32,000 bases of DNA from Halomonas sp. GFAJ-1 (GCA_002966495.1 CP016490.1:2590454-2622453), one strand, 5' to 3'; counted from the first letter of the stretch, positions 1 through 18,005 are shown. Notes: a model not told the origin generated them from the letters alone. Numbers and translations are program-made.

Positions 1-1422
1 TTTGATACCGCCTATCGCCATTACGCGGTGGCGTCGGATGCCACCGGCGTGGAGCTGCTAAAAAACCTGGACGCCGCCGTAGAGCGCTGTTACGACGAGT
101 GGTTCCTGGGCCAGCTCACCCGTAACTGGAGCGAGCGCGTAGAAGCCGAACAGCGGCTCACCCACTGGAAGCTGCCGAACATTCCCAGCCAGCAACACTT
201 CTACCGCGACTGGGTGCAGCCCCAGCTAGGTGCTAGCCGCCAAAAGCGTGTGGTGGTGGTGATTAGCGATGCCTTCCGCTATGAAGCGGCGGAAGAGCTG
301 CGTGAGCGCATTAATGCCAAGCGCTACAGCGAAGCGACGTTAAAAAGCCAGTTGGGTGTGGTGCCCAGCTACACCACCCTGGGGATGGCCTCGCTGTTAC
401 CGCACCGGGAACTCAGCTATCAGCCGGGCAGCGATACGGTGTTGGTGAACGGCCAATCTACCCAAGGCACGGCGAACCGCAGCAAGCTACTCAAAGCCGC
501 GCTAGGCGGGGAGGCGTTAGCCGTCACCGCCGACGAGGTAAAAGGCTGGAGCCGTGAAGAGGGGCGCGAAAAGATCAAAGGCGTGCAGCTGATGTACGTG
601 TACCACAACGTGGTAGATGCCCGTGGAGATGCCGCCAACACCGAAAGCGAGACGTTCGCATCGGTGGAAGATGCCATTGATGAACTGGATCAGCTGACCC
701 GTAAAATTCTCATGCACCTGAACACCAGCACGGTGCTGGTCACCGCCGACCATGGTTTCCTGTTCCAGCGTAGCGCCTTGGATGCTACCGACCGCACGGC
801 GCTGTCAGAAAAGCCAACATCGGCCTTCAAAAGCAAAAAGCGCTATGTGCTGGGTGAATCGCTGCCCGATAACCCCAGTGTGTGGCACGGCCATACCCGC
901 GATACCGCAGGCACCACCTGTGACACCCAGTTCTGGATACCCAAAGGCGCGCACCGTTTTCATTTTGTGGGCGGGGCGCGTTTTGTACATGGGGGCATTA
1001 TGCCCCAGGAAATTGTGGTGCCGGTGCTTACTGTTCAGCAGCTTCGGGGCGAGAAGGTGGAAAAGCGCACCAGTCGCAAGGTGGAAGTCATTTCACCCAA
1101 GGCATCGCTGAAGATGGTCAATAACATTCAGCGTTTTGAGCTGCTGCAAACCGAAGCGGTCAGCGAGCGCCTCCGCCCAGTCACGCTGTCGGTGGCGATT
1201 TACGCGGGCAGCGAGGTGGTTTCCAGTGAAGAGGTCGTGACCTTCGATAGCGCAAGCGACAATATGACCGAGCGCATGAAGTCGGTGCGCCTCTCGCTAT
1301 CAGGCACGTCATTCGACCGCAAGAATGACTACTTCCTGGTGTTGCGGGATAAAGACCTAGGCACCGAACGGGAGCGCTACCGGGTAGTAATTGATCTCGC
1401 GTTTACAGACGATTTTTTCTAG
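1..1422 (+). CDS. pglZ: BREX protein PglZ (BrxZ, alkaline-phosphatase superfamily), C-terminal part; 5' end lies outside the window
   Basis: Frame 1 is open from base 1 into ORF 28..1422. Motifs VVVVISDAFRYEAAEEL, VPSYTTLGMASLLPH and LVTADHGF are typical of the PglZ core. brxL follows directly, as in type 1 BREX. Confidence 0.85.
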   Translation, partial: FDTAYRHYAVASDATGVELLKNLDAAVERCYDEWFLGQLTRNWSERVEAEQRLTHWKLPNIPSQQHFYRDWVQPQLGASRQKRVVVVISDAFRYEAAEELRERINAKRYSEATLKSQLGVVPSYTTLGMASLLPHRELSYQPGSDTVLVNGQSTQGTANRSKLLKAALGGEALAVTADEVKGWSREEGREKIKGVQLMYVYHNVVDARGDAANTESETFASVEDAIDELDQLTRKILMHLNTSTVLVTADHGFLFQRSALDATDRTALSEKPTSAFKSKKRYVLGESLPDNPSVWHGHTRDTAGTTCDTQFWIPKGAHRFHFVGGARFVHGGIMPQEIVVPVLTVQQLRGEKVEKRTSRKVEVISPKASLKMVNNIQRFELLQTEAVSERLRPVTLSVAIYAGSEVVSSEEVVTFDSASDNMTERMKSVRLSLSGTSFDRKNDYFLVLRDKDLGTERERYRVVIDLAFTDDFF

Positions 1423-1494
1423 GCCAGTCATCAGCGGGAACGCTTTTATGTTTGTGCATTGTGCTTTTAACGTCGTTCAGGAGTGACCGCCCAC

Positions 1495-3567
1495 ATGGAT
1501 TTTGATTCAACTTCCGCCACGCAAGTGACTGACGCCCTCCAGGATGCCGATCTGGATACGCTGCTCAACACGCACTTTGCGGGCCGCGTGGTGCGTAAGG
1601 ATCTCACTCAACGCGTGAAAGAGGGCGCAAACGTGCCTGTTTACGTGCTGGAGTACCTGTTGGGTATGTACTGCGCCTCAGACGATGCGGAGGTGATCGC
1701 TACGGGATTGGAAAACGTTAAAGCGATTCTGACGGATAACTACGTTCGCCCGGATGAAGCGGAGAAAGTGAAATCCATCGTGCGCGAGCGCGGCAGCTTC
1801 AAGGTGATTGATCGTGTCACGGTGCGCCTGAACGAGAAAAAAGACCGCTATGAAGCGGCGTTCAGTAACTTAGGCATCAAAGATGCCGAGATCTCCGCAG
1901 GCATTGTTAAAGAGCACGAGAAACTGCTGGTAGGCGGTATTTGGGTGATTGCCACGCTCAGCTATTTTCATGAAGAGGGTCAGTCATCGTCACCGTTTGG
2001 CGTCAGCCTGCTCAAGCCAATTCAGATGCCCCACATGAATATGGACGAGCTGTTTGAAGGGCGGCGTGGCTTTACCAATACCCAGTGGCGAGAGGTGCTG
2101 ATTCGCTCGATTGGCATGGAGCCTGCCGAGCTAGATGAGAGCGTACAGTGGCACCTGCTGGCCCGGATGATTCCGTTTGTTGAGAACAACTACAACGTCT
2201 GCGAGCTAGGGCCACGGGGCACAGGCAAAAGTCATATCTATAAAGAGTGCTCACCCAACAGCATTTTGGTCTCTGGCGGGCAAACCACGGTGGCCAACCT
2301 GTTCTACAACATGAGCTCGCGTCGCATTGGCCTGGTAGGCATGTGGGATTTGGTGGCCTTCGATGAAGTGGCCGGTATCTCGTTCAAGGATAAGGATGGG
2401 GTGCAGATCATGAAGGATTACATGGCCTCTGGTTCTTTTGCCCGTGGGCGCGAACAGATGGAAGCCTCAGCCTCGATGGTGTTTGTGGGCAACATCAACC
2501 AAAGCGTGGAGTCGCTGGTAAAAACCAGCCACCTATTGACACCATTCCCCGATGCCATGATTGATGCCGCCTTCTTTGATCGCTTCCATGCCTATATTCC
2601 CGGCTGGGAAATCCCCAAGATGCGGCCCTCGTTTTTTACTCAGCGCTATGGGTTTATTGTTGATTACCTCGCTGAATTCTTCCGTGAGATGCGCAAACGC
2701 AACTTCGCCGATGCTATTGATCGCTACTTCTCGTTGGGTGACAACCTCAACCAACGTGACGTGATTGCGGTGCGTAAAACCGTGTCGGGCCTGCTGAAAC
2801 TGATGTTCCCCCATGGGGAATACATGAAAGACGATGTACGCGATTGCCTGGAATACGCCATGCAGGTACGCCGCCGCGTGAAGGAGCAGCTGAAAAAGAT
2901 TGGTGGCATGGAGTTTTACGATGTTCATTTCAGCTACATCGACAAAGAGACCTTGGAAGAGCACTTTGTGTCTGTGAAAGAGCAGGGCGGTGGCGGCCTG
3001 ATTCCAGAAGGCCAGGGCAAGCCAGGCGTGGTGCATACCATTGGCCTCAGCGATAAAGGCATGCCGGGGGTTTACCGCATCGAAATGCAGGTCACGGCGG
3101 GCAGCGGCAAGCTGGCCATGTCAGGGCTCTGGAACTCCACCGCCGCCAAAGAGCAGGTCAAAATGGCCTTTGATTACTTCAAGGCCAACGCCAGCCGCAT
3201 TAGCGGTGCCCGTAAGGTGCTAGAGCACGACTTTCACCTCCATGTGGTCGATCTGCAAAATAGCGGCGTTTTGCGTGACCTTTCGCTCGCCAGCTTGGTC
3301 GCGTTCTCTTCAGGCCTGGTAGGTAAACCTACTCAGAGCCAAATGGTCGTGCTGGGTGATATGAGCCTGGGAGGCAGCCTAAAGCCCGTCGCAAGCCTAG
3401 CGGAATGCCTGCAGGTTGCTTTTGATGCCGGTGGCAAGCGCGTCACCCTGCCCATGAGCAGCGCCATAGATATTCCCACCATCCCCGGAGAGCTGTTCAC
3501 CAAGTTCCAAACTAGCTTCTATGCCGAACCGATTGATGCAGTGGTCAAAGCGCTTGGGGTGGGTTAA
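1495..3567 (+). CDS. brxL: BREX Lon-like protease/ATPase BrxL
   Basis: Contains FAGRVVRKDLT..GANVPVYVLEYLLGMYC at the N-terminus, a P-loop GPRGTGKS, and a Lon-protease-like C-terminal domain. It is the last gene after pglZ. ATG 1495 is preferred over GTG 1483, because AGGAG at 1479-1483 overlaps the GTG. Confidence 0.85.
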   Translation: MDFDSTSATQVTDALQDADLDTLLNTHFAGRVVRKDLTQRVKEGANVPVYVLEYLLGMYCASDDAEVIATGLENVKAILTDNYVRPDEAEKVKSIVRERGSFKVIDRVTVRLNEKKDRYEAAFSNLGIKDAEISAGIVKEHEKLLVGGIWVIATLSYFHEEGQSSSPFGVSLLKPIQMPHMNMDELFEGRRGFTNTQWREVLIRSIGMEPAELDESVQWHLLARMIPFVENNYNVCELGPRGTGKSHIYKECSPNSILVSGGQTTVANLFYNMSSRRIGLVGMWDLVAFDEVAGISFKDKDGVQIMKDYMASGSFARGREQMEASASMVFVGNINQSVESLVKTSHLLTPFPDAMIDAAFFDRFHAYIPGWEIPKMRPSFFTQRYGFIVDYLAEFFREMRKRNFADAIDRYFSLGDNLNQRDVIAVRKTVSGLLKLMFPHGEYMKDDVRDCLEYAMQVRRRVKEQLKKIGGMEFYDVHFSYIDKETLEEHFVSVKEQGGGGLIPEGQGKPGVVHTIGLSDKGMPGVYRIEMQVTAGSGKLAMSGLWNSTAAKEQVKMAFDYFKANASRISGARKVLEHDFHLHVVDLQNSGVLRDLSLASLVAFSSGLVGKPTQSQMVVLGDMSLGGSLKPVASLAECLQVAFDAGGKRVTLPMSSAIDIPTIPGELFTKFQTSFYAEPIDAVVKALGVG

Positions 3568-3629: not shown

Positions 3630-3812
3630 ATGGAAAAATCTAATGAGCTCAGTGATGTAAAAGCAAACGGCGACCCTCTGCAGCGGCTTAAGGGCTCGGT
3701 TGGCAAATATGAGAAGCCATTTGAGCCTGTAGGCATTGAGGACTGGGAGGCTATGCAGATGGAAGAGCCTATTCCAGCCACCCGCACAGGTGATGAGCAT
3801 CCGCCGAGATAG
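3630..3812 (+). CDS. small hypothetical protein (60 aa); may not be coding
   Basis: Short ORF only. The acidic C-terminal stretch KPFEPVGIEDWEA is loosely reminiscent of antitoxin tails. No partner gene was seen. Confidence 0.25.
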   Translation: MEKSNELSDVKANGDPLQRLKGSVGKYEKPFEPVGIEDWEAMQMEEPIPATRTGDEHPPR

Positions 3813-3870
3813 ACACGCATTGCACATGCCATGTTAGTGAGCACATGGTCGGTAGGCGAGGAGCATAGCC

Positions 3871-4194
3871 ATGAAAGTGACTGAAAAAGTAGAAGTCGAA
3901 GCCGTCACCGATGTGGTGTGCGATGTATGCCTAACCACGACACGGGTAGCAGACGACAACCTTGAGTACGCCACCCTCAAAGCCCATTGGGGCTATGGCG
4001 CTCAACATGACGGCGAGCGTTATGAAGTTCACCTGTGCGAAAGCTGTTTTTTCAGCACGTTGGCTTACTTCAAACAAGAACGCCGTGTGCAAAATTTGTT
4101 CAGCGAAGATAGCGACAGAGAGCAGGCCTTCAATACAGATGACCGCCTGGGGCTAGTGGCGACGGATGACTATTTTGGTGATCATAAATCTTGA
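3871..4194 (+). CDS. hypothetical Cys-rich (CxxC...CxxC) small protein, possible zinc ribbon
   Basis: 107-aa ORF with GAGGAG 8 nt upstream of the ATG. Carries CDVC and CESC pairs. Confidence 0.5.
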   Translation: MKVTEKVEVEAVTDVVCDVCLTTTRVADDNLEYATLKAHWGYGAQHDGERYEVHLCESCFFSTLAYFKQERRVQNLFSEDSDREQAFNTDDRLGLVATDDYFGDHKS

Positions 4195-4476
4195 TAAGTG
4201 GTTTTGCTTCGCCTTTGGACTGAGTACAGAGGGCTGCTTAAGGCAGATTTCGACCCTGAGCGGACGTTCCCGAAACTATATATTTGCGGAGCCCTAAGCT
4301 CACAATGCGCGTTTTTCAGGTGCCGGCTGTAATATGAGTGCTCATATTTCTGGAGTATAATACTGTAAGTTTAGGTAAAAATGGTTTATGAAAAGGTGTT
4401 CTATGTTTATACGCAATTTTGAGAGAATGGTGATAATATTAACACGCATTCGCATGAATAAAATTGTTAGGCGCAC

Positions 4477-5028
4477 ATGAAATTTAGCGATCTTCTCGGC
4501 CAAGGGTACGACGAAAGAACCGAAATCATATATGCCAATCCAATTCGTGTTTATCTTCCGGAAACTCCGCTCAAGGTAATTGAGCAGGTCTACTGTCACC
4601 ACGGCAGAAAAGACGAGTTTCAGAGACAGTACGGAGAGCTTAATCTATCTGCCATAGCTTGGACCTCTATCACGTTGCCTGCCTCAGAAATAATTAAGGC
4701 TACTATCTACGAAGGTTTTATGCGTTGGTTCCGAAATGTTGAGTCCCGTACCTTGGAGTTTGCAGAGCGTGGCTGGCAGTGCATCGATAAGCGGAAAGAC
4801 GTAATTTCGCATTGGTCAAGGTATCAAACATGGTCGCGTCCACCTGTGTTCATCCAAGGGCTTACGCCGGGAGTTATCGGGGGACTGCACCTGATGGAAG
4901 GCCATACTAGAGTTGGCCTGCTAAGGGGCTTGGTAAAAGACGGAGTGCTTAGTCCGTTATCAAGGCATAAAGTCTTTGTTGGGCGTGTAGATGCGCCTAA
5001 CAAAAAATTGCATCAGACAAGCCGCTGA
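4477..5028 (+). CDS. hypothetical protein (183 aa)
   Basis: Clean ORF in a visibly AT-rich segment. No family recognised. Any ParB/Srx-like reading of LMEGHTRVG is speculative. Confidence 0.5.
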   Translation: MKFSDLLGQGYDERTEIIYANPIRVYLPETPLKVIEQVYCHHGRKDEFQRQYGELNLSAIAWTSITLPASEIIKATIYEGFMRWFRNVESRTLEFAERGWQCIDKRKDVISHWSRYQTWSRPPVFIQGLTPGVIGGLHLMEGHTRVGLLRGLVKDGVLSPLSRHKVFVGRVDAPNKKLHQTSR

Positions 5029-5057
5029 ATGCGGCGTTATACGTTTCTGGAGATACA

Positions 5058-5303
5058 ATGAGAGTTCTGGCTATCATTTCAAATGTTTTCTTGCTTATAG
5101 TGGTAGTACTACTCATCGTGGATAGTGGATGGCCATATGAATTAATTTATCAGTTAATGTTGCTTGTATTCTTTGCGGCCCCAATAATCAGTATTTTTGC
5201 TCTTGTTCAGTCAAATCTTGCTAAATCAGAAAGTTGGCTGGGCCTATTTATGCAACGGAAAAAGTTAGAAGAAAAAGAAAAGTTACGAAATTTACAAAAA
5301 TAG
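5058..5303 (+). CDS. small membrane protein (81 aa, two hydrophobic helices)
   Basis: Hydrophobic N-terminal 55 aa (VLAIISNVFLLIVVVLLIV, LMLLVFFAAPIISIFALV) followed by a Lys/Glu-rich tail. GGAG lies upstream of the ATG. Confidence 0.45.
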   Translation: MRVLAIISNVFLLIVVVLLIVDSGWPYELIYQLMLLVFFAAPIISIFALVQSNLAKSESWLGLFMQRKKLEEKEKLRNLQK

Positions 5304-5423
5304 ATAAATAAAACTGTATAACAATCGTAAGCAGTTCAGCCCTGCAGGCTCTGACGTCGCTTATCTCCGTTGCTGTTGTAAGCATTACCAGAGAGCAAAA
5401 CATCAATCAACGTCCCTCAAAGA

Positions 5424-6197
5424 CCGCTTCTGGCCGAGTAACGACGGCCCGAAATAGGCCGTCGTTCAGCCTCATCAAACTTCAGTCTGTTCTGCCATTT
5501 CTAACGCGTCATCTACCTCTATCCCTAGATACCTGACAGTGCTTTCCAGCTTCGTGTGACCCAGGAGCAGTTGCACTGCCCTTAGGTTTTTCGTGCGACG
5601 GTATATCAACGACGCTTTAGTGCGGCGCATCGTGTGCGTGCCATACACTGACGCATCTAAACCTATTTCGGTGACCCATGCTTTCACGATACGGGCATAT
5701 TGGCGTGTTGAAAGATGCTTTGCGCTATTGATGCGGCTGGGAAACAAGAAGTCTTCGTTTCTAAGTTGAGCAAGCTGTATCCAGTCCATGATAGCAATAC
5801 GCGTTTGCTCGGTTATTTCGAACTGGACAGGTCGATGCGTTTTTTGCTGCATCACGATGGCTCGTGGGGATATGCACGCACCATGGGCTATATCCCGGAC
5901 TCGTAAATTGACAAGGTCGCAGCCCCGTAATTTGCTATCAATGGCTAAATTGAAGAGGGCAAGGTCTCTCGTCTTTTTGGCAAGCTGTAGGCGCACACGT
6001 ATAGCCCAAATATCTCGAAGGCGCAGAGGCGACTTCTGACCAACTAACTTGCCTTTATTCCAAGGTGTAGGTGTACAGGAGATTTCAGTCACAACGTTCA
6101 TGGCATGTTCCTCCATCAGGTGGAGGTCAAAGAATGGCTCAATTCATGCTCGTCATGTGCTAAGGATAATTTACAATCGGTGCTCGACCCAAAGCGG
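5424..6197 (-). mobile_element. recombinase module copy 1 (~770 bp), bounded by imperfect inverted repeats
   Basis: Near-identical to 8195..8962. The ends are CCGCTTCTGGCCGA (5424-5437) and TCGACCCAAAGCGG (6184-6197). The reverse complement of the latter, CCGCTTTGGGTCGA, matches the former at 11/14 positions. Confidence 0.55.
5475..6101 (-). CDS. short tyrosine recombinase/integrase (catalytic domain only, ~208 aa)
   Basis: Catalytic pattern R (KLRGCDL), H-x-x-R (HTMRRT), H (LLGHTK) and Y (TVRYLG). GAGGA lies 8 nt upstream of ATG 6101; the ORF track starts at 6116 with no RBS. Confidence 0.8.
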   Translation of the reverse strand: MNVVTEISCTPTPWNKGKLVGQKSPLRLRDIWAIRVRLQLAKKTRDLALFNLAIDSKLRGCDLVNLRVRDIAHGACISPRAIVMQQKTHRPVQFEITEQTRIAIMDWIQLAQLRNEDFLFPSRINSAKHLSTRQYARIVKAWVTEIGLDASVYGTHTMRRTKASLIYRRTKNLRAVQLLLGHTKLESTVRYLGIEVDDALEMAEQTEV

Positions 6198-6364
6198 TTA
6201 TTCCAGGAAACGCAGCAGACGCGCGATTTTTGGAGATACAACCTAATGGAAATTGATGATTTTGAATATTATAGACTTTTACAGGCTGCATTTGCCGGAT
6301 AAACGTGCCGGAACGTTTTTTCAATCATAAGATGGGAAGTCTAATACACTGTTAGGCGTTTAAA

Positions 6365-7777
6365 ATGGATAGATGCGAGAAACGAATAGAGGCGGCGTTC
6401 CTTGTCCAGTGCTCGTCACAGGCTGCGTACGATTGGTTATTTTCCCGCAGGTACACTGGTGATCAGGGGCCGCCTAGGCTTTTCGAAGCCCCTGAGATTC
6501 TGGAGTACTTGTTGGTTCGCCGTAAGGATCCATTCATTGACTTGGCTATTGCACGCTTCGGCCACTCCCTACCAATGATTCGAAGGGTGTTCAGGCGAGG
6601 TAACGTGGGAACACGGTGTGCTGCTCTAGCGAATCTACATGTTGGGCCACGTACTCGTATGAATCGAATTAATGAGGGTTGGCTCCAGGAAGACGAGCTT
6701 AGGAAGCTTATTCGGAGTGGCTCAGAAGCAGAACTTGAAGCGTTGATTAAAAACAGATTTCTAAACGATGATGCGCTCGAATGTCTGCTTGAACGAAAAG
6801 AGGAATTTGCGGATATATCCGAAGAGCAATATATTAAGATGCTCATTTGGTTAGGGAAAAATCCTCGTATGTCGGCTGAATACGACCACAGGATTCTTGA
6901 CGGCTGGGCGGAGTCTAGTCATGCAAGAGTATTCTCGTTGGCTTGGGAGCTTGCGCGACATTTAGCTACAACAAAGACAAATGCCCGGGTGCTGTATGAA
7001 CTTCTGAAGAACACCGCGTTACCCGTTGGCTATGACAATCCTGAAGAAGTCTTGGAGCGATGGAGAATTGAGCAGGAACCCAAGAACGGACGCAGGTCAC
7101 TGGCATATTCATACTTCCTTAGAACGCGTCTTGCTGATGTTCTAAAGGCCGATGATAAACTTCTTTCCTCCAACGACCCATCGGAAAGAGAGTCGTTCTA
7201 CCGAAGATTCTACCCTTGGCAGTACAAGGACTGGCCCACGTTTATAGAGCGAGATGGCGGGCTTGCTTTCGATGCGATGGCTGAAAATAACGAATTGTGG
7301 CGTAACGCGGAGAGTCGGGAAGTATTACGCGATTTAGCTTGGAAAGTTCCCGATCCTCATTCATCTATGAGGGCTCCGAATACCTACAATGCTGTCGAAG
7401 AGCGTAAACTTAGGGAACATCCAGAATGGTTTGCAGATGAGGATTCGGAGTACAGCAATGCTCCGGATGCGATAGTCCGGCGTGTTGAGAAAAAAATGGA
7501 TAAGCTTGTAGATGCTGTCGAACCATTTTTGGGCAAGGATAATTATATCAATACCGTGGCGCAAGATATTGTAGAAAAAGTGGAGCGCTTGTCGAAACGC
7601 ATAGAGGATGCAGACACTGATAGTCAAAATGAAATTAGGCATGAACTCCATAGCTTGCGAGATGAACTGCATGAAACTAGAGCAATAACTCAACCGGCAC
7701 CATGTAGGTATACACGTGCGCCTGTTTGGCCATGGATCATTATCATTGGCCTTTTAATATTACTATTGCTGAAGTGA
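6365..7777 (+). CDS. hypothetical alpha-helical repeat protein with coiled-coil and C-terminal transmembrane anchor (470 aa)
   Basis: Long ORF. The C-terminus is VWPWIIIIGLLILLLLK. An acidic or coiled segment (VEKVERLSKRIEDADTDSQNEIRHELHSLRDELHE) precedes it. Confidence 0.6.
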   Translation: MDRCEKRIEAAFLVQCSSQAAYDWLFSRRYTGDQGPPRLFEAPEILEYLLVRRKDPFIDLAIARFGHSLPMIRRVFRRGNVGTRCAALANLHVGPRTRMNRINEGWLQEDELRKLIRSGSEAELEALIKNRFLNDDALECLLERKEEFADISEEQYIKMLIWLGKNPRMSAEYDHRILDGWAESSHARVFSLAWELARHLATTKTNARVLYELLKNTALPVGYDNPEEVLERWRIEQEPKNGRRSLAYSYFLRTRLADVLKADDKLLSSNDPSERESFYRRFYPWQYKDWPTFIERDGGLAFDAMAENNELWRNAESREVLRDLAWKVPDPHSSMRAPNTYNAVEERKLREHPEWFADEDSEYSNAPDAIVRRVEKKMDKLVDAVEPFLGKDNYINTVAQDIVEKVERLSKRIEDADTDSQNEIRHELHSLRDELHETRAITQPAPCRYTRAPVWPWIIIIGLLILLLLK

Positions 7778-8194
7778 AATATGCCTAACACCTATGAGCC
7801 TTCTCTCTGTCAATAGGCCGTAGGAGTTTTATTAGCCGCGCAAGCAGCCAATATCAAGCCCCTGAGCCAGTGATCCTACTTCATCTGTCATCATTGGCTG
7901 TAAGTGGCTTACAGCAAACACCTATTGAGGCACACTTATTGCGGTGGTTCACCAAAGGCTTCTGGCATGTAGGTCAATTCCACAGTAGTGGCGATGAGTG
8001 CTAGTGTAAAAGTTCATTGAGTCTTCTCCTGTTAGGTTTGGCCACCTTTTCAGCTTAACCAAACGGGCTGAGCTGGGGGAGAAGGATAAATGAGTATCAA
8101 TCCCATCAACAATGGCAGCAAAAAGCGCCGCTCCTTCGTTACCTGCTTTTTGCTTCTGGTTTTGGGCGGCGTTAAATCAGTGTTACCTAAAATA

Positions 8195-8962
8195 CCGCTT
8201 TTGGCCGGACAACGACGGCTAAGGATAGGCCGTCGTTTATCCATATCAAACCTCTGTCTGTTCTGCCATTTCCAACGCATCATCTACCTCTATCCCTAGA
8301 TATCTAACGGTGCTTTCCAGCTTCGTGTGACCCAAGAGCAGCTGCACTGCCCTTAAGTTTTTAGTGCGACGGTATATCAGCGACGCTTTGGTGCGGCGCA
8401 TCGTATGCGTGCCATAGATTGAAGCATCTAAACCTATTTCGGTGACCCAGGCTTTCACGATACGGGCATATTGGCGCGTGGACAGATGCTTTGCGCTATT
8501 GATTCGGCTGGGAAACAAGAAGTCCTCGCTCCTGAGCTGAGCAAGCTGTATCCAGTCGATAATAGCGATCCGAGTTTGCTCGGTAATTTCGAACTGGACA
8601 GGTCGATGCGTTTTTTGCTGCATCACGATGGCTCGTGGGGATATGCACGCACCATGAGCAATATCTCGTACACGTAAATTGACGAGGTCGCAGCCTCGTA
8701 ATTTGCTATCGATGGCTAGGTTGAAGAGGGCAAGGTCTCTCGTCTTTTTGGCCAGCTGCAGGCGCACACGTATAGCCCAGATATCACGAAGGCGCAGAGG
8801 CGCCTTCTGCCCAACCAACTTGCCTTTATTCCAAGGTGTAAATGAGATTTCAGTCGGAACGTTCATGGCATGATCCTCCATCAGGTGGAGGTCAAAGAAT
8901 GGCTCAATTAACGCTCGTCATGTGCTAAGGTTAATTTACAGTCAGGGTTCGACCCAAAGCGG
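8195..8962 (-). mobile_element. recombinase module copy 2 (~770 bp direct repeat of 5424..6197)
   Basis: Same end motifs as copy 1: CCGCTTTTGGCCGG (8195-8208) and TCGACCCAAAGCGG (8949-8962). The encoded protein differs from copy 1 at only a handful of residues plus a 2-aa indel. Confidence 0.55.
8246..8866 (-). CDS. short tyrosine recombinase/integrase, second copy (~206 aa)
   Basis: Same R/HxxR/H/Y motifs as 5475..6101. Uses the same internal ATG with GAGGA upstream (the ORF track starts at 8881). Confidence 0.8.
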   Translation of the reverse strand: MNVPTEISFTPWNKGKLVGQKAPLRLRDIWAIRVRLQLAKKTRDLALFNLAIDSKLRGCDLVNLRVRDIAHGACISPRAIVMQQKTHRPVQFEITEQTRIAIIDWIQLAQLRSEDFLFPSRINSAKHLSTRQYARIVKAWVTEIGLDASIYGTHTMRRTKASLIYRRTKNLRAVQLLLGHTKLESTVRYLGIEVDDALEMAEQTEV

Positions 8963-9149
8963 CCCTCTCGGCAACTGGTTCAGTTGTGTTATGCAGCCTA
9001 TTCATATCCATTTGCATTTAATTTCAATGGAATAGAACATAAATGATAGGCGGCATAACCTAAATGAACGCTCCCCCGTGTTCATTTAGGTTATGTAGAG
9101 GGTGTATAAACACCGATACGTGGGTACCTGATAATCTCAGAGGGTAATT
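8948..9149 (+). repeat. repeated leader unit A (attI-like): core TCGACCCAAAGCGG, GTTATGCAGCC box, 16-bp perfect hairpin, RBS
   Basis: Aligns by eye with 9900..10130. Shared blocks are tcgacccaaagcggccc, gtgttatgcagcc, aatttcaatgg, ataacctRaatgaac/gttcattYaggttatgtagaggg and ggtaattWtatg. The hairpin spans 9054-9069 / 9080-9095. Confidence 0.6.
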
Positions 9150-9530
9150 ATGGCAAAGGTAGGAATAGTTCTCGTCACGGCCCTTTTTATCGCAGGCTGC
9201 GCTTCGCAGATCATGGAATCTTACGTTGGAAAAGACATTCGTGAAGCTGCCCTAGATTACGGCCCACCTTCAAATGCCATCGATATGGGTGATAACGAAA
9301 GAGCTTTTCAGTGGGTAATGAATTCAAGTTTCACAACCCCCGTTACTACCACCACTACAGGGAGCGTAACATCGTATGGTCCGGGCTCTTGGATTAATAC
9401 AAACACCACAGTAACAGGCGGGGAGACAGTCAATTCATCCTGCATCTACACGCTAATGGCTCGCTGGAATGAGCGCTCAGAAAGCTGGATTGTAACTGGT
9501 TTCAGAAAGCCTCGGTTTACCTGCGAATGA
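9150..9530 (+). CDS. putative lipoprotein (126 aa)
   Basis: Signal peptide with lipobox LFIAGC. Thr-rich mature part. GAGGG RBS present. Confidence 0.6.
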   Translation: MAKVGIVLVTALFIAGCASQIMESYVGKDIREAALDYGPPSNAIDMGDNERAFQWVMNSSFTTPVTTTTTGSVTSYGPGSWINTNTTVTGGETVNSSCIYTLMARWNERSESWIVTGFRKPRFTCE

Positions 9531-9899
9531 CCACTTAACAAGGCAATCAAATTCGTTCTGGCCTTTGGCTTCTACCGAGTGCCTTTATCAGAGCGCAGCT
9601 TATTGTTGCCGTATGTGCTACTAGAAACCGCAAAAGCAAAGATGAAAGAAAGCCACGCACAGTGGCTAGGCGCGCTAGGAGGCAAAGCAAGGTGTAAAGA
9701 AGAAACACAAAAAAATCTGCCAAATAACATGCAGTCTCAATGGTGTGTAGCGACTTGTGCGCATTGCACGCACGACCTAGCTTCACGATGCATGAATAAA
9801 CAATTCGCCTAGATCTCACCCTTTCGTTGAAAGCAGTGACAAATTTCAATTTCTTAATATGCCGAATGAAAGCTACGTTGAGGTGAATAGGGAGCTGTA

Positions 9900-10130
9900 A
9901 TCGACCCAAAGCGGCCCTTCCGGCGAAAGCTGCATGCTGATTCAGCCGTGTTATGCAGCCGGCACGATAATCTATGTTATGCTGCCTATTTATAATTAAT
10001 TTATTTTAATTTCAATGGGGTAGATCGTGAATGATGGGCTGTATAACCTGAATGAACTCGGCGGTGCGTTCATTCAGGTTATGTAGAGGGATGTATAATA
10101 ACTGTTGCGTGTCGGTAACGAGGTAATTTT
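9900..10130 (+). repeat. repeated leader unit B (second copy of the attI-like unit, no recombinase gene next to it)
   Basis: Core TCGACCCAAAGCGG at 9901-9914. Two direct boxes: GTTATGCAGCC (9950-9960) and GTTATGCTGCC (9976-9986). Hairpin at 10043-10057 / 10068-10082. Confidence 0.6.
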
Positions 10131-10694
10131 ATGGCCCTTTTGGCCGAAGAAATTGTTGAGGAATGGCTGAATAGGCAGGGTTACTTCACTATCCGTGGAA
10201 TCCGTCTTGGCGTCAACGAGATTGATTTGGTCGCCGTAAAGTTCAGATCAGGGGAAAGCCCAGTTTGTCGCCATGTTGAGGTACAGGCGTCAATGAGACC
10301 GGTAAGCTACATCTCCAAGGTGCCCAAAGCTGCACGAAAAACAGGCCGAGCTGCGAATAGCGCAGCACGTTCACAGGAAGAACTTGTTGAAGGTGTTGCC
10401 GAATGGGTGGAGGGAAAGTTCCATGCCACCAAGAAGCGCTCACTTATGGCAACTCTGTGGAGCGGGGAGTGGTCGTCGGAGCTGGTTATAAATAACGTCA
10501 AATCTGAGCAGGAAGTAGCGCTTATCGCAGAGCATGGAGTAATTATACACCGGCTTCCTAAGATTGTTCGGGAGCTTCAAGTCAATGATTTCCCAATCAA
10601 AAGTGCTGCTGGAACAGATTTTATAGACCTCTTGCAAATGGGGGCCAACACAAAACAAGATGCTCTACCGTACGCTCCTTCGTCACGCCGGTAA
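10131..10694 (+). CDS. hypothetical protein with PD-(D/E)xK-like (YraN/endonuclease-like) N-terminal region
   Basis: The pattern EEIVEEWLNRQGY...NEIDLVAV...RHVEVQAS resembles the E..GY..EIDL..VEVK signature, with Q in place of K. The stop lies inside the attC-like site. Confidence 0.55.
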   Translation: MALLAEEIVEEWLNRQGYFTIRGIRLGVNEIDLVAVKFRSGESPVCRHVEVQASMRPVSYISKVPKAARKTGRAANSAARSQEELVEGVAEWVEGKFHATKKRSLMATLWSGEWSSELVINNVKSEQEVALIAEHGVIIHRLPKIVRELQVNDFPIKSAAGTDFIDLLQMGANTKQDALPYAPSSRR

Positions 10695-10708
10695 GCTCTG
10701 CGTTATAA
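10650..10708 (+). repeat. attC-like recombination site (59 nt)
   Basis: Imperfect palindrome ACAAAAC-AA-GA[T]GCT[C]TACCG ... CGGTA-AGC-TC-TGC-GTTATAA. Paired AAC/GTT ends, with unpaired T and C on one arm. Confidence 0.6.
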
Positions 10709-10724
10709 GTCATTGAGGTTCTGA

Positions 10725-11393
10725 GTGAGTAATGAAATTCGGGCGATAATTCAGAAGGCTGAAGAAACGCTCCAAACTGCTAGGTTTGGCTACGAGGATC
10801 TCACGTCGAGAAATCGCTACCGGAGGTATTCGGGCATCCGAAACTTGGTCGTTTTTGGCCGTTCAGTGACTTTCGTAATTCAGAACCTTAAAACGCCTGT
10901 TGGTTCTGATCGGTTTGATGCTTGGTATCAACCGATACAGGAAAAAATGAAGTCTGATGTTCTGATGAAGTATTTCGTCACGCTGAGAAACGAAATACTC
11001 AAACAGGGAAAACTGCCGGTCAGCACATCTGCCTCAGTCAACTTCTCATCTTCTGACATGGTAAAGTTGGGAACACCTCCCCCAGGAGCCAGTGGATTTT
11101 TCATTGGAGATCAAACTGGCGGTAGTGGGTGGGAAATCGAATTGCCGGATGGGACAAAGGAAAAGTATTACGATGAACTCCCCGAAAGCATGGCTAAGGT
11201 TCAGCAGCACTTCAGCGAATTGCCGGTTCCAGATGATGACGATTTGAAGAAAAAGTCTATCGAGGAGCTTTGCGAATACTATCTTAAAGAACTTGAAGGG
11301 GTCCTAGACGAGGCTCGGAAAGTCTTCTTGGGTGAGGATACTCAAAGGGCCGGAGGGAAGAGGCTTCCTCCTTATTTGAGAGTAGTGAAATGA
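10725..11393 (+). CDS. hypothetical protein (222 aa), cassette-borne
   Basis: GTG start with GAGG 6 nt upstream. Flanked by the inverted pair GTTATAAGTCA (10702-10712) and TGACTTATAAC (11391-11401). Confidence 0.55.
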   Translation: MSNEIRAIIQKAEETLQTARFGYEDLTSRNRYRRYSGIRNLVVFGRSVTFVIQNLKTPVGSDRFDAWYQPIQEKMKSDVLMKYFVTLRNEILKQGKLPVSTSASVNFSSSDMVKLGTPPPGASGFFIGDQTGGSGWEIELPDGTKEKYYDELPESMAKVQQHFSELPVPDDDDLKKKSIEELCEYYLKELEGVLDEARKVFLGEDTQRAGGKRLPPYLRVVK

Positions 11394-11394
11394 C

Positions 11395-11478
11395 TTATAA
11401 CCAGTGCAGGCACGGCGACGCCCACTACATTGCGCCTTCGGCTCCATTCCGTGGGCGCGCATGCTGCAAGCGTTAGCC
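11395..11478 (+). repeat. attC-like recombination site (84 nt)
   Basis: TTATAAC...TGCAG...GCG[A]CGCCCAC - loop - GTGGGCGCGC...CTGCA...GTTAGCC. Arms pair with one extrahelical A. Ends with a GTTRRRY-like box. Confidence 0.7.
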
Positions 11479-11491
11479 TTTATGGAGAGTT

Positions 11492-12460
11492 ATGAGTAAG
11501 CCTTTAATTTACCTAGATCAAAATATCATCGGCTTGCAGTTGCAGGGCATTATCAACCTGAGTAAGCGAGATGATGTAACTTGGGTTTACTCAAAAGAGC
11601 ACTTTGCAGAGATTCTACGCTCTAATAAATCTGAGAAATATTTAGGTGTTCTCGATGCTATAGATGCAAAATTATTAGACCTTGTTCTTGACGATAACTG
11701 GAAAATTACTGGTGAAGCTAGGTTAATTGAGAACGGAACCCCATATGAACATTATGATAGCTACATTGAAGCAACCGGTGATGTAGATTTCGATGACTCC
11801 ATTTTCGACCCATTCCAGGTATGGGTTAACGGTGGTGGAGACGAAGGTCCATTAAAGGACCTCTCTGAAAAATTCGCACAGCAAATCTTAAGGCTCACTT
11901 CTGACTTGCCTTTTGATACTACAGAAATGACTGACCAAGTTAAGCAGATAAAGCCCGAATTTGATTCCATGATCGATGAGATGATATCAAATGGAAATGA
12001 TATCCATAAGACTAGGGCGGCTTTCGGAGATCAGAAAGGCTCCATCGGTAGTATATCAGGCGAGAAACAGATTGAGAAAATTTGGGAAATAATATCCCCA
12101 ACGATGCACGGGGCAGATATTAGTTGTGATCAATTTTTTGGCTTTGATCCCATCGATAAACAAGGTTGCGGCATTTGGCCAATTTATCTCGGAATAATTG
12201 GATGCAATTCGGTGCTTGATATATTAGGTTTTCAAGCAGAGAAAAAATGCAGAAAACTAAACAAAATTCATAACGTAAGAAGTGATGCTGGTCATATAGC
12301 GATGGGCGCATATTGCTCAGCAATCATGTCTGAGGATAAGCGTTTAGTTAAAAGAGCAAAAGCCATCTATGAATATAAGGAAATAGGAACTTCTCCTATT
12401 CTGGTCATACGAGAGGCTAACAAACCAATCCAGCCGACCGCTGACGCGTCGGCTGATTGA
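11492..12460 (+). CDS. hypothetical protein (322 aa), cassette-borne
   Basis: Clean ORF with GGAGAG upstream. The N-terminal IYLDQNII is loosely PIN-like (speculative). The stop lies inside the next attC-like site. Confidence 0.55.
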   Translation: MSKPLIYLDQNIIGLQLQGIINLSKRDDVTWVYSKEHFAEILRSNKSEKYLGVLDAIDAKLLDLVLDDNWKITGEARLIENGTPYEHYDSYIEATGDVDFDDSIFDPFQVWVNGGGDEGPLKDLSEKFAQQILRLTSDLPFDTTEMTDQVKQIKPEFDSMIDEMISNGNDIHKTRAAFGDQKGSIGSISGEKQIEKIWEIISPTMHGADISCDQFFGFDPIDKQGCGIWPIYLGIIGCNSVLDILGFQAEKKCRKLNKIHNVRSDAGHIAMGAYCSAIMSEDKRLVKRAKAIYEYKEIGTSPILVIREANKPIQPTADASAD

Positions 12461-12470
12461 AGCGTTCGTC
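12415..12470 (+). repeat. attC-like recombination site (56 nt)
   Basis: GGCTAAC-AAAC-CAATC[C]AGCCGAC - CGCTGACGC - GTCGGCT-GATTG-AAGC-GTTCGTC. Near-perfect arms with one extrahelical C. Confidence 0.7.
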
Positions 12471-12482
12471 AGCTTTGAGAGC

Positions 12483-13274
12483 GTGGTGTCAACGATGAGT
12501 GAAATTCCTGGATTTAGGGACGTGGGGCCACATGAGCCATTGTCCGTCGAGGCCACTTGGGACGAGTTCGTATCGATCTCAGGCGGGAAACGAATCTCGG
12601 ATGATCTCCCGAAATCTCCCGATTTTGATAACGCCGATTATCTGTTCGAGCAAGATGCTGTAGTACTTGAGTTGAAGGAAATCGAGACCGAGTTCCTACG
12701 TTCTAAATCTGCCAAGCGCGGGTTCGAGGATCTCTTAACGCGGCTTACTGCAGAAGATCCTTCATGGCGGCCGCTTTTGTTAGGAGGTGATGGACAATAT
12801 CCAGCGTGGTTTCATCAAGGGTTCGTTCGCCTTGCAAGGCCCGCCATTCTACGGGTACTCAAAAAGGCCAATAGGCAAATTCGGGAAACGAAAGAGAAGT
12901 TTCGGATCAACAGTCCCAACGGAGTGCTCATATTCGTCAATGATGGGTTCACTGGTTTGGCGCCAGGCCTCGTTCACGCTCTCGCCTGTGACGCATTGGT
13001 GCACTCCTATTCCTCAATTGATTGTTTCCTTTATGTCACCGTCAATCGCTATGTTGAGGTCACGCAGTCGAATGAGCCAAAGATAATTTGGAATCCGTCC
13101 TACAGTGATCGGGCGCCTAATGAACTCGTAACCTTTATCGACACCCTTGGGCGGCGCTGGTTCGATTTCTTAGAGAACAAAATCGGGCCGTACACGTCCC
13201 GCTATGAAGGCGGCGATCGGTCGATACTTCATGGCTCCAAGGCTATCGTCATCCCGGGTGAGGAAGACAGGTGA
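12483..13274 (+). CDS. hypothetical protein (263 aa), possible PD-(D/E)xK nuclease fold
   Basis: ORF with an alternative ATG at 12495. The stretch NADYLFEQDAVVLELKE fits D-x10-E-x-K; this reading is speculative. Confidence 0.5.
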   Translation: MVSTMSEIPGFRDVGPHEPLSVEATWDEFVSISGGKRISDDLPKSPDFDNADYLFEQDAVVLELKEIETEFLRSKSAKRGFEDLLTRLTAEDPSWRPLLLGGDGQYPAWFHQGFVRLARPAILRVLKKANRQIRETKEKFRINSPNGVLIFVNDGFTGLAPGLVHALACDALVHSYSSIDCFLYVTVNRYVEVTQSNEPKIIWNPSYSDRAPNELVTFIDTLGRRWFDFLENKIGPYTSRYEGGDRSILHGSKAIVIPGEEDR

Positions 13275-13294
13275 GCGGTCCTGCGCCGCCGAAC

Positions 13295-13365
13295 AACAAA
13301 CTGTACCTGACGTCTCCGCCTCCGCTGTGCTATGGCGGAGCCGCAGGTGAGCTTGAGCGTTAAAT
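13295..13365 (+). repeat. attC-like recombination site (71 nt)
   Basis: AACAAAC..ACCTG-ACGT-CTCCGCC - loop - GGCGGAG-CCGC-AGGT..GCGTTAAAT. The terminal GTTAAAT fits GTTRRRY exactly. Confidence 0.7.
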
Positions 13366-13403
13366 TCTATAAACCCACAGATCAGAAAGAGTTGGATATC
13401 CGT

Positions 13404-14429
13404 ATGAGCAAGGAGATACTGGAGGAGCAGCGAAGATTTTTCGAGTTTGTTAAGAGCTATGAACATATCAATGAAGAGGGCCGTCTTGACTTAGAAGCTT
13501 TCTGTGTAAACCTCTCAACGTGTTTCAATTGCGATGGGGTTCTCGATCAATCGCCTCAGCCCAGAGAAATCTTTGATTTGCTCATTGACATACTGGAAAC
13601 CAAAGCTACCGGGAAGGAGATGTCCTTATGGTTGCAGAGGCAAAACCTGATCGATTGGTCCCCCGAAGTTGCTCAGGTATATCCGGATGGCTATAGAACC
13701 TATATTCATGTAGCTGGCTTAATTCACGCAGCATACACGTGGATATATCACATTGGGCACTCCTTGATGGGGATCTCTGAGCCCGAATCGCCAAAAAAAT
13801 ATTTTGAATGGATCCCACGTGAATGGGTTTTCGTTCATGCGTTTATAAATGGATTTCACATCAAGTTTTCTGAGTTTCAAAAAGAAATCGATAGGAGCTC
13901 AGTCGGTGAAAGAGGGTATTCATTATTCGAGTCACTACACAAGTCGATATCTAACGACCTTTCCTTTGAAGAAGCGTCTCAGGAGATAAAGGAAAGAGAC
14001 GTAGCGCATCGCGAAACGATAAAAAGAATCGAGATAGCTATTGATTCAGGCTTTAATCTTGAGGCGATTACCTTGCAAGAGTGCTTGATTAGTAATTGCC
14101 TTTTCAATTACTTGGAAAGTCTTGGTATTAAGGCTAAAGGTTTTTCATTTCAAAAGCTCTTAAAAAAGAGTAAGGACTGCTTCAACGATAGTTCGGACCT
14201 GTTTAATGAGGTTGATTCTTGGAGAATTAAAAGGAATAACGCAATACATGGGTTCGTTGAGTCAACCTTAGGGTCATTTTCTGAATCTCAAGAAAAATTT
14301 GACCTCTTTGCCAGAGGGACCGCCTTGGAAGGTGATGCTCTCTCCAAAAGAGTTTGTGAGTGGTATCTTGAAGAGTCTGTAAACTTCATACCAGCCGAGT
14401 TTCCTAAAAGTGGAAGAAATCTCAATTAA
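13404..14429 (+). CDS. hypothetical protein with C-terminal HEPN-like R-x4-H motif (putative RNase)
   Basis: RNNAIH at 14232-14249 (WRIKRNNAIHGF). The ORF-track start at 13332 lies inside the attC-like site, so ATG 13404 (MSKEILEE) is preferred. Confidence 0.55.
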   Translation: MSKEILEEQRRFFEFVKSYEHINEEGRLDLEAFCVNLSTCFNCDGVLDQSPQPREIFDLLIDILETKATGKEMSLWLQRQNLIDWSPEVAQVYPDGYRTYIHVAGLIHAAYTWIYHIGHSLMGISEPESPKKYFEWIPREWVFVHAFINGFHIKFSEFQKEIDRSSVGERGYSLFESLHKSISNDLSFEEASQEIKERDVAHRETIKRIEIAIDSGFNLEAITLQECLISNCLFNYLESLGIKAKGFSFQKLLKKSKDCFNDSSDLFNEVDSWRIKRNNAIHGFVESTLGSFSESQEKFDLFARGTALEGDALSKRVCEWYLEESVNFIPAEFPKSGRNLN

Positions 14430-14435
14430 GGTGAT

Positions 14436-14494
14436 ATTTAACAAGTTACGGAAGGCGGACGCGTAAGATGTGCCCCTTCGTTTTGGCGTTATAT
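14436..14494 (+). repeat. attC-like recombination site (59 nt), last of the array
   Basis: ATTTAAC (exact RYYYAAC) -AAGTT-ACG-GAAGG-CGGAC ... GTGCCCCTTC-GT-TTTGGC-GTTATAT. Imperfect palindrome. Confidence 0.6.
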
Positions 14495-14767
14495 CAGGCA
14501 AAGCTGAAAGGCCGCTCCTGGCCGATAGTTGACGTTGAAAAGCTGTTTGTTGGTGCCAAAATCTAAAATTTGCTTGTTTTGAAAGAAGTAAGCACGTGTA
14601 GCGACCTATGAGCAGGTTAGAGAGAGTTTCGGCACACAGTTTGTATATTTCCTAGTAGTGTTCAAAAGCTGTAGGAACGAACAAGGAACGCTAGCGAGCT
14701 AAGCGGTAGATCAGAGAAATGTTTTCGCTGAGATGTGTAGTGAATTGTCCATGAGTAACGTCCATCA

Positions 14768-15289
14768 ATGAGAGCGCCGTTATCGCTACCCCAGCTATGG
14801 GAAAGCACCAAATACGTATCTTGGCCACAAAGCCACAGTAACCCCATTGTGCGTGTGCCGCGCCCATCGGGGAAACCCGAAACCAAGTCGATTTCCCGCT
14901 TAGCCAATGAGTACGACACCTTTGAGCGGTGCATTGCTTATCGAGACCAGCGGGGCAGAGAGGTTTGGGGCGCACGTCGTTGGAAAGAGCTGTTGTTAGT
15001 AGATGCACGCTCCGTCGCGCGTCATCGTGAAGAGCCGGCAGGCCCGATCACGGGCGTTTACCACTACGAACGCCCCACTGGAACAACACTCTGGGTTGCC
15101 GCCTGGTATGAGCTGATGCCCGACGGCTCACGCAAAAAACGCAGTGCGCAGTTCAGTTACGGTACGTCACGCACTCGCTATGCGACCTCAGAAGAGGCGA
15201 TGCAGGCGGCGATTAAACGGCGGCAAGAGGAAGAAGCACGCTGGTACTGTGTAGTGGGTCAACGTGATCAACGGCGCGTGAATCAATGA
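14768..15289 (+). CDS. AP2-like DNA-binding domain protein
   Basis: [14 protein letters not shown] followed by [29 protein letters not shown]...[12 protein letters not shown] resembles bacterial AP2/integrase-type DNA-binding proteins. The true start may be GTG 14849 or 14855. Confidence 0.55.
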
Positions 15290-15317
15290 TGTAAAATCCC
15301 ATCTTCAAGGAGTTCCA

Positions 15318-16541
15318 ATGGCTTTTCGCTTCCAGCGCCGCATTTCCCTTGCGCCCGGCGTGCGATTGAATATCAGCAAGCGTGGCGTGGGGCTCTCTGT
15401 CGGCCCACGCGGTGCGAGTGTGAGCATGGGGCCACGAGGTGCGCATGCACATGCCGGACTTCCTGGGACAGGGCTGGCCTATCGAACGAAGATTTCCCGT
15501 TCTTCCCAGGCCTCACGACAAAGGCAGTTGGGAACATCCTCGACCCATGCAACGCTGGAAGAGCGCATCAGGCAAGGCGAGTCGCTGGGGCTACGGCTAT
15601 CGGTTAATCAAGACGGCAACGTCCGCTACCTATTTGAAGATGGCTCCCCCCTCAACGACAAGGACGTGCGCTGGCTACGTCGCCATGCAAACGACGATAT
15701 CCGTGCACAGCTCAAAACACTCTGCGATGAATTAAACGCGGATATTATTCGCCTAGGCCGGCTGCACCTCGATACACTTTCCCCTCAATCCCGTGGCTAC
15801 GCACCACGCCATTTTGCTGAGCGTCCACCTAAACCGCCTAAGTCTGTGTCTCTTCCATGGTGGAAAGCGCTGTGGCCATCGGTACGCCGTCAACATGAGG
15901 CCGATAACGCACGTCATCAGGCCCAGTTTAATGATGACTACCGTGCCTGGGAGCATCGCAAAGCCGATTTTGAGGCTGCTGAGTTTGCTCGGCAGCAGCG
16001 CGAAGAGCAGGGCGTGTTCAGACAACGTGATGATATGACACTCACGCTTCAGGAACGCCTGGAGGAGATCGACTGGCCCCGGGAGACGGTGATTGACTTT
16101 GATCTAGGCAGCGACGACACCACGATAGCACTGGATATTGACCTGCCATCTGACGATGAGATGCCGGATCGAGAATGGACGATGCCTGCTAAGGCACTCA
16201 AGCTTACCCCAAAATCGCTCAGTGCCACACGACAACGGACGCTATACCGCGACCATGTGGATGGCATTACCTTTCGTGTTCTGGGGGCCGTATTTGTGCG
16301 GTTGCCGCACGTTCAAGAAGCGCGAGTGTCTGGGTATCGACAGGTCGTTGATCCCGCCACCGGCGGTACGCGGGATCAGTACCTTTACAGCATCAAGGTC
16401 ACCCGAGAACAGTGGAACCGTATTCACTTCGATCAGTTGGAACAGGTCGACCCGGTGGCGGCAGTAGAAGCGTTTACGCTGCGTCGTGACATGACCAAAA
16501 CAGGCATTTTTCGAGATATTGAGCCGTTTAAGCTCATCTAA
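15318..16541 (+). CDS. DUF4236-like protein (407 aa)
   Basis: The N-terminus [41 protein letters not shown] is the DUF4236 signature. GGAG lies upstream of the ATG. Confidence 0.65.
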
Positions 16542-16762
16542 TTTCTAGCTTAGGCATAAGCCCAAGGCTTTTGTGTTGTTTGACCAGGTGTGCTCATTCG
16601 ATGGTAGTGACAACGGTTAGGCGTGAGCGGCGCTGACATTACAGCCTTTGATCATTGAGAAGGCGCGATGAGCTTTATAGGCCAATATTTTTTAGAAAAA
16701 TTTATGCTTTATGGTGGATAGCTGCTATACGTTTGATAAGGATATCTTAGCAGGTGGTTGCC

Positions 16763-18001: not shown

Positions 18002-18005
18002 CGTC

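Follow-up and report, generated by a model that had tools for sequence, protein, structure and literature searches.

A short tyrosine recombinase between inverted arms in a Halomonas cassette array, and its possible role in moving promoter-led cassette blocks

The window analysed here is a stretch of 32,000 nucleotides from Halomonas sp. GFAJ-1 (GCA_002966495.1, CP016490.1:2590454-2622453). Its first genes, for PglZ (28-1422) and BrxL (1483-3567), are the final part of a BREX system. Positions 16754-23310 are taken up by the right end of a CRISPR-associated Tn7-like transposon of type I-F3, with tniQ, a cas8/5 fusion, cas7 and cas6 on the plus strand (16754-21731), a CRISPR array of three 28-nt repeats (starting at 21855, 21915 and 21975; span 21855-22002) and three Tn7-type end repeats TTATGTCA...GTGGAA (23209-23310). 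TRF missed the CRISPR array in the window, and a separate repeat search found it. With BREX genes at the start and tniQ/cas and Tn7 ends at the right, everything between them is cargo of the I-F3 transposon, and the whole cassette array described below is part of this cargo. The genes for PglZ and BrxL (28-3567) are cargo as well, and the cassette blocks follow immediately downstream of them. Between the CRISPR array and the transposon end there is an AbiEi-like gene (22270-22809), and just beyond that end a TnsA-like fragment (23408-23683). Among the matches listed, the best protein matches (94-98% identity) are from V. aquamarina, V. titanicae, V. alkaliphila and unclassified Halomonas. Rfam yielded no match within the window, and PADLOC none for the recombinase or for nine cargo genes.

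The recombinase gene at the centre of this study was called as an ORF at 8246-8881 on the minus strand, which confirms the leftward transcription stated in the original prediction. Its real start is probably the ATG at 8866, because the homologues are 206 aa long and a GGAGG sequence lies 9 nt upstream of that codon. The gene so defined (recombinase copy 2, 8246-8866, minus strand) would encode a 206-aa, Xer-like protein consisting of the catalytic domain only. Its sole Pfam family is PF00589 (residues 45-195), and candidate catalytic residues, placed from motif positions, are Arg57, Lys85, His154/Arg157 and Tyr189. As Arg I already stands at residue 57 and PF00589 occurs alone, the N-terminal core-binding (SAM-like) domain is missing. 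The spacing from Lys to His II (Lys85-His154) is 69 aa, against 103 aa in IntI1, so that the IntI-specific insertion (~35 aa) is missing too. The integron-integrase models TIGR02249 and NF011946 score 24.3 and 19.2 bits, far under their cut-offs of 265 and 435. For want of the core-binding domain, the insertion and adequate scores we rejected the assignment to IntI. Judged by its sequence, the protein is a tyrosine recombinase that is not IntI, and the original description of a non-IntI protein of ~206 aa devoid of the IntI-specific segment stands. It shares one trait with IntI, being divergent from, and adjoining, an attI-type unit. Xer models rank first in NCBIfam, yet they are also far below cut-off (XerC 62.5 bits, cut-off 335; XerD 47.2 bits, cut-off 330). 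Membership of XerC/XerD was rejected on account of these scores and of the lack of a full-length two-domain protein. Among PDB matches, XerD (1.6e-5), XerC, XerH and XerA are all better than VchIntIA (2a3v, E = 0.46).

A second recombinase gene (copy 1, rec1; 5475-6101, minus strand) encodes 208 aa with 96% amino acid identity to copy 2. The two genes differ by 46 synonymous and 6 non-synonymous codons, which indicates purifying selection on both. In both, the Shine-Dalgarno sequence lies within an inverted repeat, CCTCCA...TGGAGG (8870-8890 and 6105-6125). An inverted repeat is also found at this place upstream of the recombinase in the loci L001 and L016, its sequence being different across genera. 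This conserved arrangement suggests translational occlusion of the recombinase.

Copy 2 lies within a module of 768 bp (8195-8962), the boundary of which was set by blastn against rec1 and the loci L009, L010 and L089. The module consists of a left arm, a hairpin, the recombinase gene and a right arm, and its edges coincide with the outer ends of the arms. The left arm CCGCTTTTGGCCG (8195-8207) forms the left end of the module, 3' of the recombinase stop codon, and the hairpin AACGACGGC-N9-GCCGTCGTT (8211-8237) stands just 3' of that codon. The 5' region of the gene (8867-8962), which includes the inverted repeat at 8870-8890, ends with the right arm TCGACCCAAAGCGG (8949-8962). Copy 1 is carried by a twin module on the minus strand (5424-6197), with left arm (5424-5436), hairpin (5440-5466) and right arm (6184-6197) in the same arrangement.

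Next to the right arm of copy 2 lies an attI/promoter-like unit, unit A (8963-9115, plus strand). It contains a box GTTATGCAGCC (8988-8998), an inverted box (9049-9059) and a perfect 16-bp hairpin (9054-9095, z = -7.9) with GTTATGT (9090-9096) at its 3' foot. TGTATAAA follows at 9103-9110, and the crossover box is degenerate (G|AT at about 9115). The first gene 3' of unit A (9150-9530, plus strand) encodes 126 aa with a lipoprotein-like N-terminus and no family match. A solo right arm (9901-9914), with no recombinase beside it, introduces unit B (9901-10106 including the arm, plus strand). Unit B has boxes GTTATGCAGCC (9950-9960) and GTTATGCTGCC (9976-9986, 1 mismatch), an inverted box (10037-10047) and a hairpin (10043-10082, z = -7.2) that is one compensatory pair apart from that of unit A. 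It ends with an extended -10 element TGTATAAT (10092-10099) and a crossover G|TT (10104-10106). The promoter of unit B is predicted from its motifs, since a simple promoter scan did not call this extended -10. In the window, five GTTATGCAGCC-type boxes were counted at up to one mismatch, two of them inverted, where 0.66 would be expected; none of 100 shuffles reached five. The box coordinates originally reported (8988-8998, 9950-9960 and 9976-9986) hold. GTTATGT, taken at the time for the end of the region, is present at the place given, but the conserved end, as seen in unit B, lies 20 bp beyond it.

Two further units precede these, so that attI/promoter units recur four times in 10 kb of the array. 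The type-1 unit after rec1 (6198-6357, plus strand) ends in TAATACACTG|TTAGGC (6342-6357), with CACTG|TTAGGC at 6347-6357 and the ATG of the next gene at 6365. At the left edge of the block array we found a weak but complete hairpin site joined to a third leader (4225-4369, plus strand; 20.3 bits, E 0.07), with a right arm TCGACCCTGAGCGG (4250-4263) and a leader end GTATAATACTGTAAG (4355-4369). This third leader type, which follows the right arm at 4264-4470, has GTATAATACTGTAAG as its end and contains motifs like CACAATGCGCGTTTTTC in several repeats; it is also seen at about 16200-16600 of L089, a locus with a truncated recombinase remnant.

The region right of copy 2 had been called attI-like, and this view is borne out by homology: the units of the window are homologous to attI/promoter regions adjoining degraded intI in three loci of Halomonadaceae (L097, L107 and L111). 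Units A and B are 66-78% identical to each other. Each shows 62% identity to the L107 unit (shuffles, at most 53%), the similarity being nearly complete over the last 100 nt. The type-1 unit is homologous to the native L111 platform instead, with the homology beginning directly after the arm. In both unit types the homology to the native platform breaks within about 2 nt of the outer end of the right arm. The chromosomal platforms have a LexA-like box and an arm-less unit leading into attC-type cassettes; L107 and L111 contain no arms. From the position of this break, the module stands in the place of intI, its promoter and the LexA-like box, which confirms the claim that the recombinase sits where intI would.

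The intI genes of these platforms are themselves decayed. The L097 unit adjoins a gene fragment that matches integron-integrase models only (86 bits over 95 aa). A search with this fragment recovered 54 protein clusters of 62-164 aa, none of full length, and the named ones are nearly all from Halomonadaceae. In L111 intI is present as a split gene. These observations come from L097 and L106-L115, which represent Halomonadaceae chromosomes and metagenomes. N-terminal fragments of intI are found at fixed chromosomal places, beside thiC in L106-L109 and beside a class-I tRNA-synthetase gene in L110-L114, and this piece may have been retained for a reason. The window holds no IntI-like ORF, and thus no functional intI of the sort that an integron platform possesses. 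A 304-aa IntI-like match in L042 was rejected as such: this tyrosine recombinase stands next to an IS91-family transposase (11046-13350) and scores just under the IntI cut-off. About 150 nt upstream of it we observed TGTATAAT and a right-arm-like CGACCCAAAGCAG.

Scanning metagenomes for the unit hairpin revealed 14 further copies of the attI/promoter unit. They start at the right arm CGACCCAAAGCGG; the boxes come next, then a stretch rich in A and T, the hairpin and a hexamer resembling TATAAT (in several of them TGTATAAT), just past which they end at a G|TTRRRY box, mostly CACTG|TTAGG. The sequences left of the right arm and right of the GTT are unrelated among them, which is the behaviour that would be expected of an attI site. 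Recombinase sequence is missing from the contig in 13 of the 14, and these 13 lie in mid-array between co-directional genes. The recombinase may be linked to integron-type sites beyond Halomonadaceae as well, since TAAT-nACTG|TTAGG motifs occur near homologues in L016 (10855, Pseudomonas), L043 (16440, Methylophilus) and L060 (5939, Sideroxydans).

The genes of the array are accompanied by attC-like sites. The best candidate (12415-12470, plus strand, z = -3.6) has the order R''-spacer-L''...L'-spacer-R', with one extra base in L'', and a second strong one is at 13288-13365 (z = -4.0). Five weaker candidates (5316-5375, 7783-7832, 8104-8177, 11395-11478 and 14436-14494) have the right position and R boxes, with weak folding (z = +0.6 to -1.5). 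Three home-made attC scanners were discarded, as they missed the sites recognized by eye or did not beat shuffles, so the attC assignments are based on folding z-scores and layout. A 24-nt leader (8171-8194, plus strand) extends from the G of an attC-like R' box GTTAAATCAG to the left arm and provides a cassette-type left boundary. The same spacing recurs at the right edge of the block array (14488-14545, plus strand; nhmmer E 0.012), where GTTATATCAG is followed 24 nt on by a left arm (14512-14524) and a degenerate right arm. Thus the window has two instances (8171 to 8195 and 14488 to 14512), and the GTT of an attC R' box (GTTATATCAG) stands exactly 24 nt before the left arm in 11 of 26 arm-like pattern matches (raw count). 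The composite runs in the order of 24-nt leader, left arm, recombinase or filler, right arm and attI/promoter unit. As far as its motifs indicate, a G|TT crossover point marks each of its two ends, as in a cassette that carries an attI.

In comparisons among composites, the breakpoints fall on the inner edge of each arm. The left arm and its 24-nt leader remain together while the inner side of the arm varies, and the space between the arms is taken by the recombinase, by a filler of 85 nt or by just a few bases. Likewise, the left side of the right arm may be ORF ends, the 85-nt filler or the recombinase, and the conservation of the unit begins at the arm. The window as a whole alternates blocks running from right arm to left arm with segments of left arm, recombinase and right arm. 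It can be read as four promoter-led blocks (4250-5436, 6184-8207, 8949-9900, in which the left arm is missing, and 9901-14524). On this reading, each opens with an attI/promoter unit and holds ordinary attC-type cassettes; the separators would be hairpin sites, two of them with recombinase. The array was probably built by a canonical IntI-type system, the signature of which is carried by the attC-like sites and the G|TT boundaries.

The original prediction would have the recombinase serve the array in place of IntI, by binding the GTTATGCAGCC-type boxes and recombining the attI-like unit with attC sites. The recombinase does occupy the intI position beside a real attI/promoter unit, at places that correspond to within about 2 nt between the two divergent types of unit, in a lineage whose own intI was recovered as fragments or a split gene. 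The G|TT points on both sides of the composite and the purifying selection on both copies would fit as well. On the other hand, nothing supports the boxes as binding sites of the recombinase: none of the 91 loci examined (81 distinct homologue loci plus duplicates) contains the boxes or the hairpin, and in PLSDB only the recombinase part of the query found matches. The proposed service to the array is at odds with unit B and the 13 metagenome units that have no recombinase. A survey of homologues for adjoining attC-like arrays, as had been suggested, showed that most are not beside any, and gene orientation around the homologue loci displayed no general integron-like polarity. With the core-binding domain and the IntI insertion both missing and model scores so low, we regard a functional replacement of IntI as quite unlikely.

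Homologues of the recombinase are widespread in Gamma- and Betaproteobacteria, with at least 8000 candidates at E ≤ 1e-5 and proteins 70-98% identical. Their hosts include Halomonas, Pseudomonas aeruginosa and Cupriavidus, and they are located on chromosomes, on plasmids (420 plasmid records) and in Tn7-like cargo. The P. aeruginosa orthologue (81% identity) is a single protein present on 467 contigs. In the P. aeruginosa loci L001-L008 the gene lies in a defence island, with an STM3845/reverse-transcriptase pair, a HATPase-GmrSD pair and a PIN-domain gene as neighbours. We found no description in the literature of this family, its arms, its hairpin sites or its integron link. Across this range the only constant companions of the recombinase are the two imperfect inverted arms, GTCCGCTTYTGGCCGGTTAGCGACC upstream of the gene and GGTCGCTAACCGGCCAGAAGCGGAC downstream. 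They bracket the gene in 80 homologue loci and in P. aeruginosa, with the hairpin on the 3' side, and, with up to three mismatches allowed, 47 of 92 copies have kept the left arm downstream of the gene. Beyond the arms the sequence varies on both sides. In L018 two direct copies of the recombinase surround cargo, and their facing arms are complementary at 20 of 20 positions.

A protein of about 200 aa with a minimal N-terminal region, coded between inverted repeats (I1; 34 nt, 85% complementary), recalls the FimB/FimE invertases, and matches to invertase models were obtained, albeit weak ones. The enzyme might then flip the segment between its arms as a phase switch. However, the model scores (26.2 and 18 bits) are far under the cut-offs of 222 and 221. 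Two orientations were not found: in every Halomonadaceae composite examined, the module points the same way with respect to leader and unit. Moreover, the cassette-facing TATAAT-like hexamer is outside the segment that would invert. A phase switch of this kind is very improbable.

The family's sites also exist without a recombinase. These copies of 60-70 nt have the two arms juxtaposed and fold as asymmetric hairpins; they have the arms alone in common, and their interiors differ. Aligning 29 of them gave 71.6% paired cells, compared with 23-47% in slid controls. The covariation score over this alignment (0.182) was reached by 1 of 500 shuffles, and a T.G wobble is retained in 20 of the 29 sites. 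In a covariance model, one strand of the sites scores 20-35 bits above the other; such a strand asymmetry is of the kind that would be expected of a folded single-strand site, like attC. Arrays of recombinase-less sites are present in L011, L049, L056 and L062. The clearest example of a cassette-like array made solely of the family's hairpin sites is the last of these (3700-18000, Massilia sp.), in which 13 such sites and small ORFs follow one another in alternation to the left and right of the recombinase. Its sites have mirrored polarity and lie inside the cargo of a Tn7-like element (TnsD, 19141-20301).

A gene bracketed by inverted repeats together with short gene-less copies is what an autonomous element and its miniature derivatives would present. 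The recombinase might accordingly be a purely selfish mini-element, with the hairpin sites as non-autonomous derivatives and attI as its preferred target, and have no role in the array. The arms would then act as terminal inverted repeats, which recombinase-less versions sharing arms and not interiors would fit. So would the presence of several copies per source (two in the window, two in L018, at least two in V. boliviensis), the many loci that stop at contig edges, the flanks varying on both sides, and the high identity across classes in so many candidates and plasmid records. Yet a comparison of listed flanks by eye revealed no target-site duplications next to the arms, and tyrosine recombinases require partner sites rather than ends. 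In addition, promoter-led blocks are regularly enclosed by the arms, and both of the divergent unit types are joined to the module at equivalent positions. We consider a purely selfish element unlikely, though less so than a substitute for IntI. REPIN-RAYT systems have a gene between inverted hairpin-forming repeats and short gene-less doublets nearby, and RAYTs are HUH single-strand nucleases. The recombinase gene is similarly flanked by inverted hairpin arms, with gene-less hairpin sites nearby; in contrast, its product is a tyrosine recombinase and the sites cluster beside cargo genes. A MITE-like or REPIN-RAYT-like enzyme was rejected, as the protein belongs to the tyrosine recombinases and the arms are not flanked by direct repeats.

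The explanation that we favour, with a confidence somewhat short of even, is that recombination at the arms and hairpin sites moves promoter-led cassette blocks and the module itself. The cognate sites of the recombinase would be the arms and not the GTTATGCAGCC boxes, and recombination between arms or hairpin sites would excise, insert and reorder the segments from a right arm to the next left arm. The recombinase would thereby form a second, coarser cassette system laid over a canonical, now intI-less, integron array, and would be no stand-in for the chemistry of IntI at attI x attC. In Halomonadaceae, the module is fused to copies of the attI/promoter unit of the family's chromosomal integron, at the point where intI and the LexA-like box would begin.

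Several lines of evidence argue for such an arm-based exchange of blocks. The module edges coincide with the arms, which are found beside the gene in diverse genera, and the hairpin sites combine pairing, covariation, wobble and strand asymmetry. Sites alternate with small ORFs in L062 and form arrays in L011, L049 and L056. Breakpoints fall at the arms, the window has an alternating layout and the arms in L018 face each other. Finally, both recombinase copies are under purifying selection, and the native platforms L107 and L111 are arm-less. Other observations weigh against the exchange of blocks at arms. Within the window the hairpin model gives only weak matches (20-22 bits), and strong recombinase-less sites near the gene are present in just about 16 of 84 loci. 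Many homologues are alone in defence islands without block structure, and the third block of the window has no left arm. We saw neither a recombination product nor a circle junction, nor any single locus in both an empty and a filled state. To our knowledge, the half-site spacer of 30-50 nt is unlike any double-stranded tyrosine-recombinase core, which also counts against this reading.

The locus resembles class 1 and Vibrio chromosomal integron platforms in having a divergent recombinase gene beside a unit with direct and inverted GTTA-type boxes, an outward TATAAT element, then a G|TTRRRY box followed by variable sequence, and attC-like hairpins after genes; the unit is homologous to one that adjoins a real, degraded intI. 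It differs from them in that the recombinase is not IntI, that the conserved partner sites are its own arms, and that attI/promoter units are repeated inside the array. In mobile integrons, Delta-attI-type cassettes have been described, in which attI-derived sites with bounds at the IntI crossover lie inside arrays (Gonzales Machuca et al. 2026, PMC12901181). Such architectures are reported to be recombination-proficient with IntI1 (PMC12901181). They share with our window the internal attI-type sites in cassette arrays, whereas the window copies are complete promoter-bearing units coupled to arms or to the recombinase module, with no intI. The Tn7-like Tn6022 carries an XerC-like recombinase and a hybrid dif-like site as cargo, proposed to diversify the island (PMC11014353). 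There, too, a Tn7-like transposon carries a recombinase related to Xer together with the site of that enzyme; however, the Tn6022 protein is homologous to XerC over its full length and acts at the dif-like site along with host XerD (PMC11014353), while the recombinase studied here is limited to the catalytic domain and tied to hairpin arms.

Gene cassettes are known to be assembled chiefly by IntI, a recombinase that works on folded single-stranded DNA. In the boldest form of our proposal, the short recombinase family and its asymmetric hairpin sites would constitute a second, IntI-independent cassette system, one that recognises DNA in its folded form. This system would, in Halomonadaceae, have captured an integron with a dead integrase, the recombinase inside its own site replacing intI and shuffling promoter-led super-cassettes, perhaps also at the G|TT of attI and attC sites. 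We think this extended version improbable, much more so than the movement of blocks at arms as such. If true, a second and much smaller family with strand-asymmetric hairpin sites would widen the picture of cassette recombinases. It would offer a possible explanation for the turnover of cassette arrays in lineages with degraded intI, and the dispersed attI/promoter units could explain how distal cassettes are transcribed. As the sites of the family are short and defined, their recombination is directly assayable.
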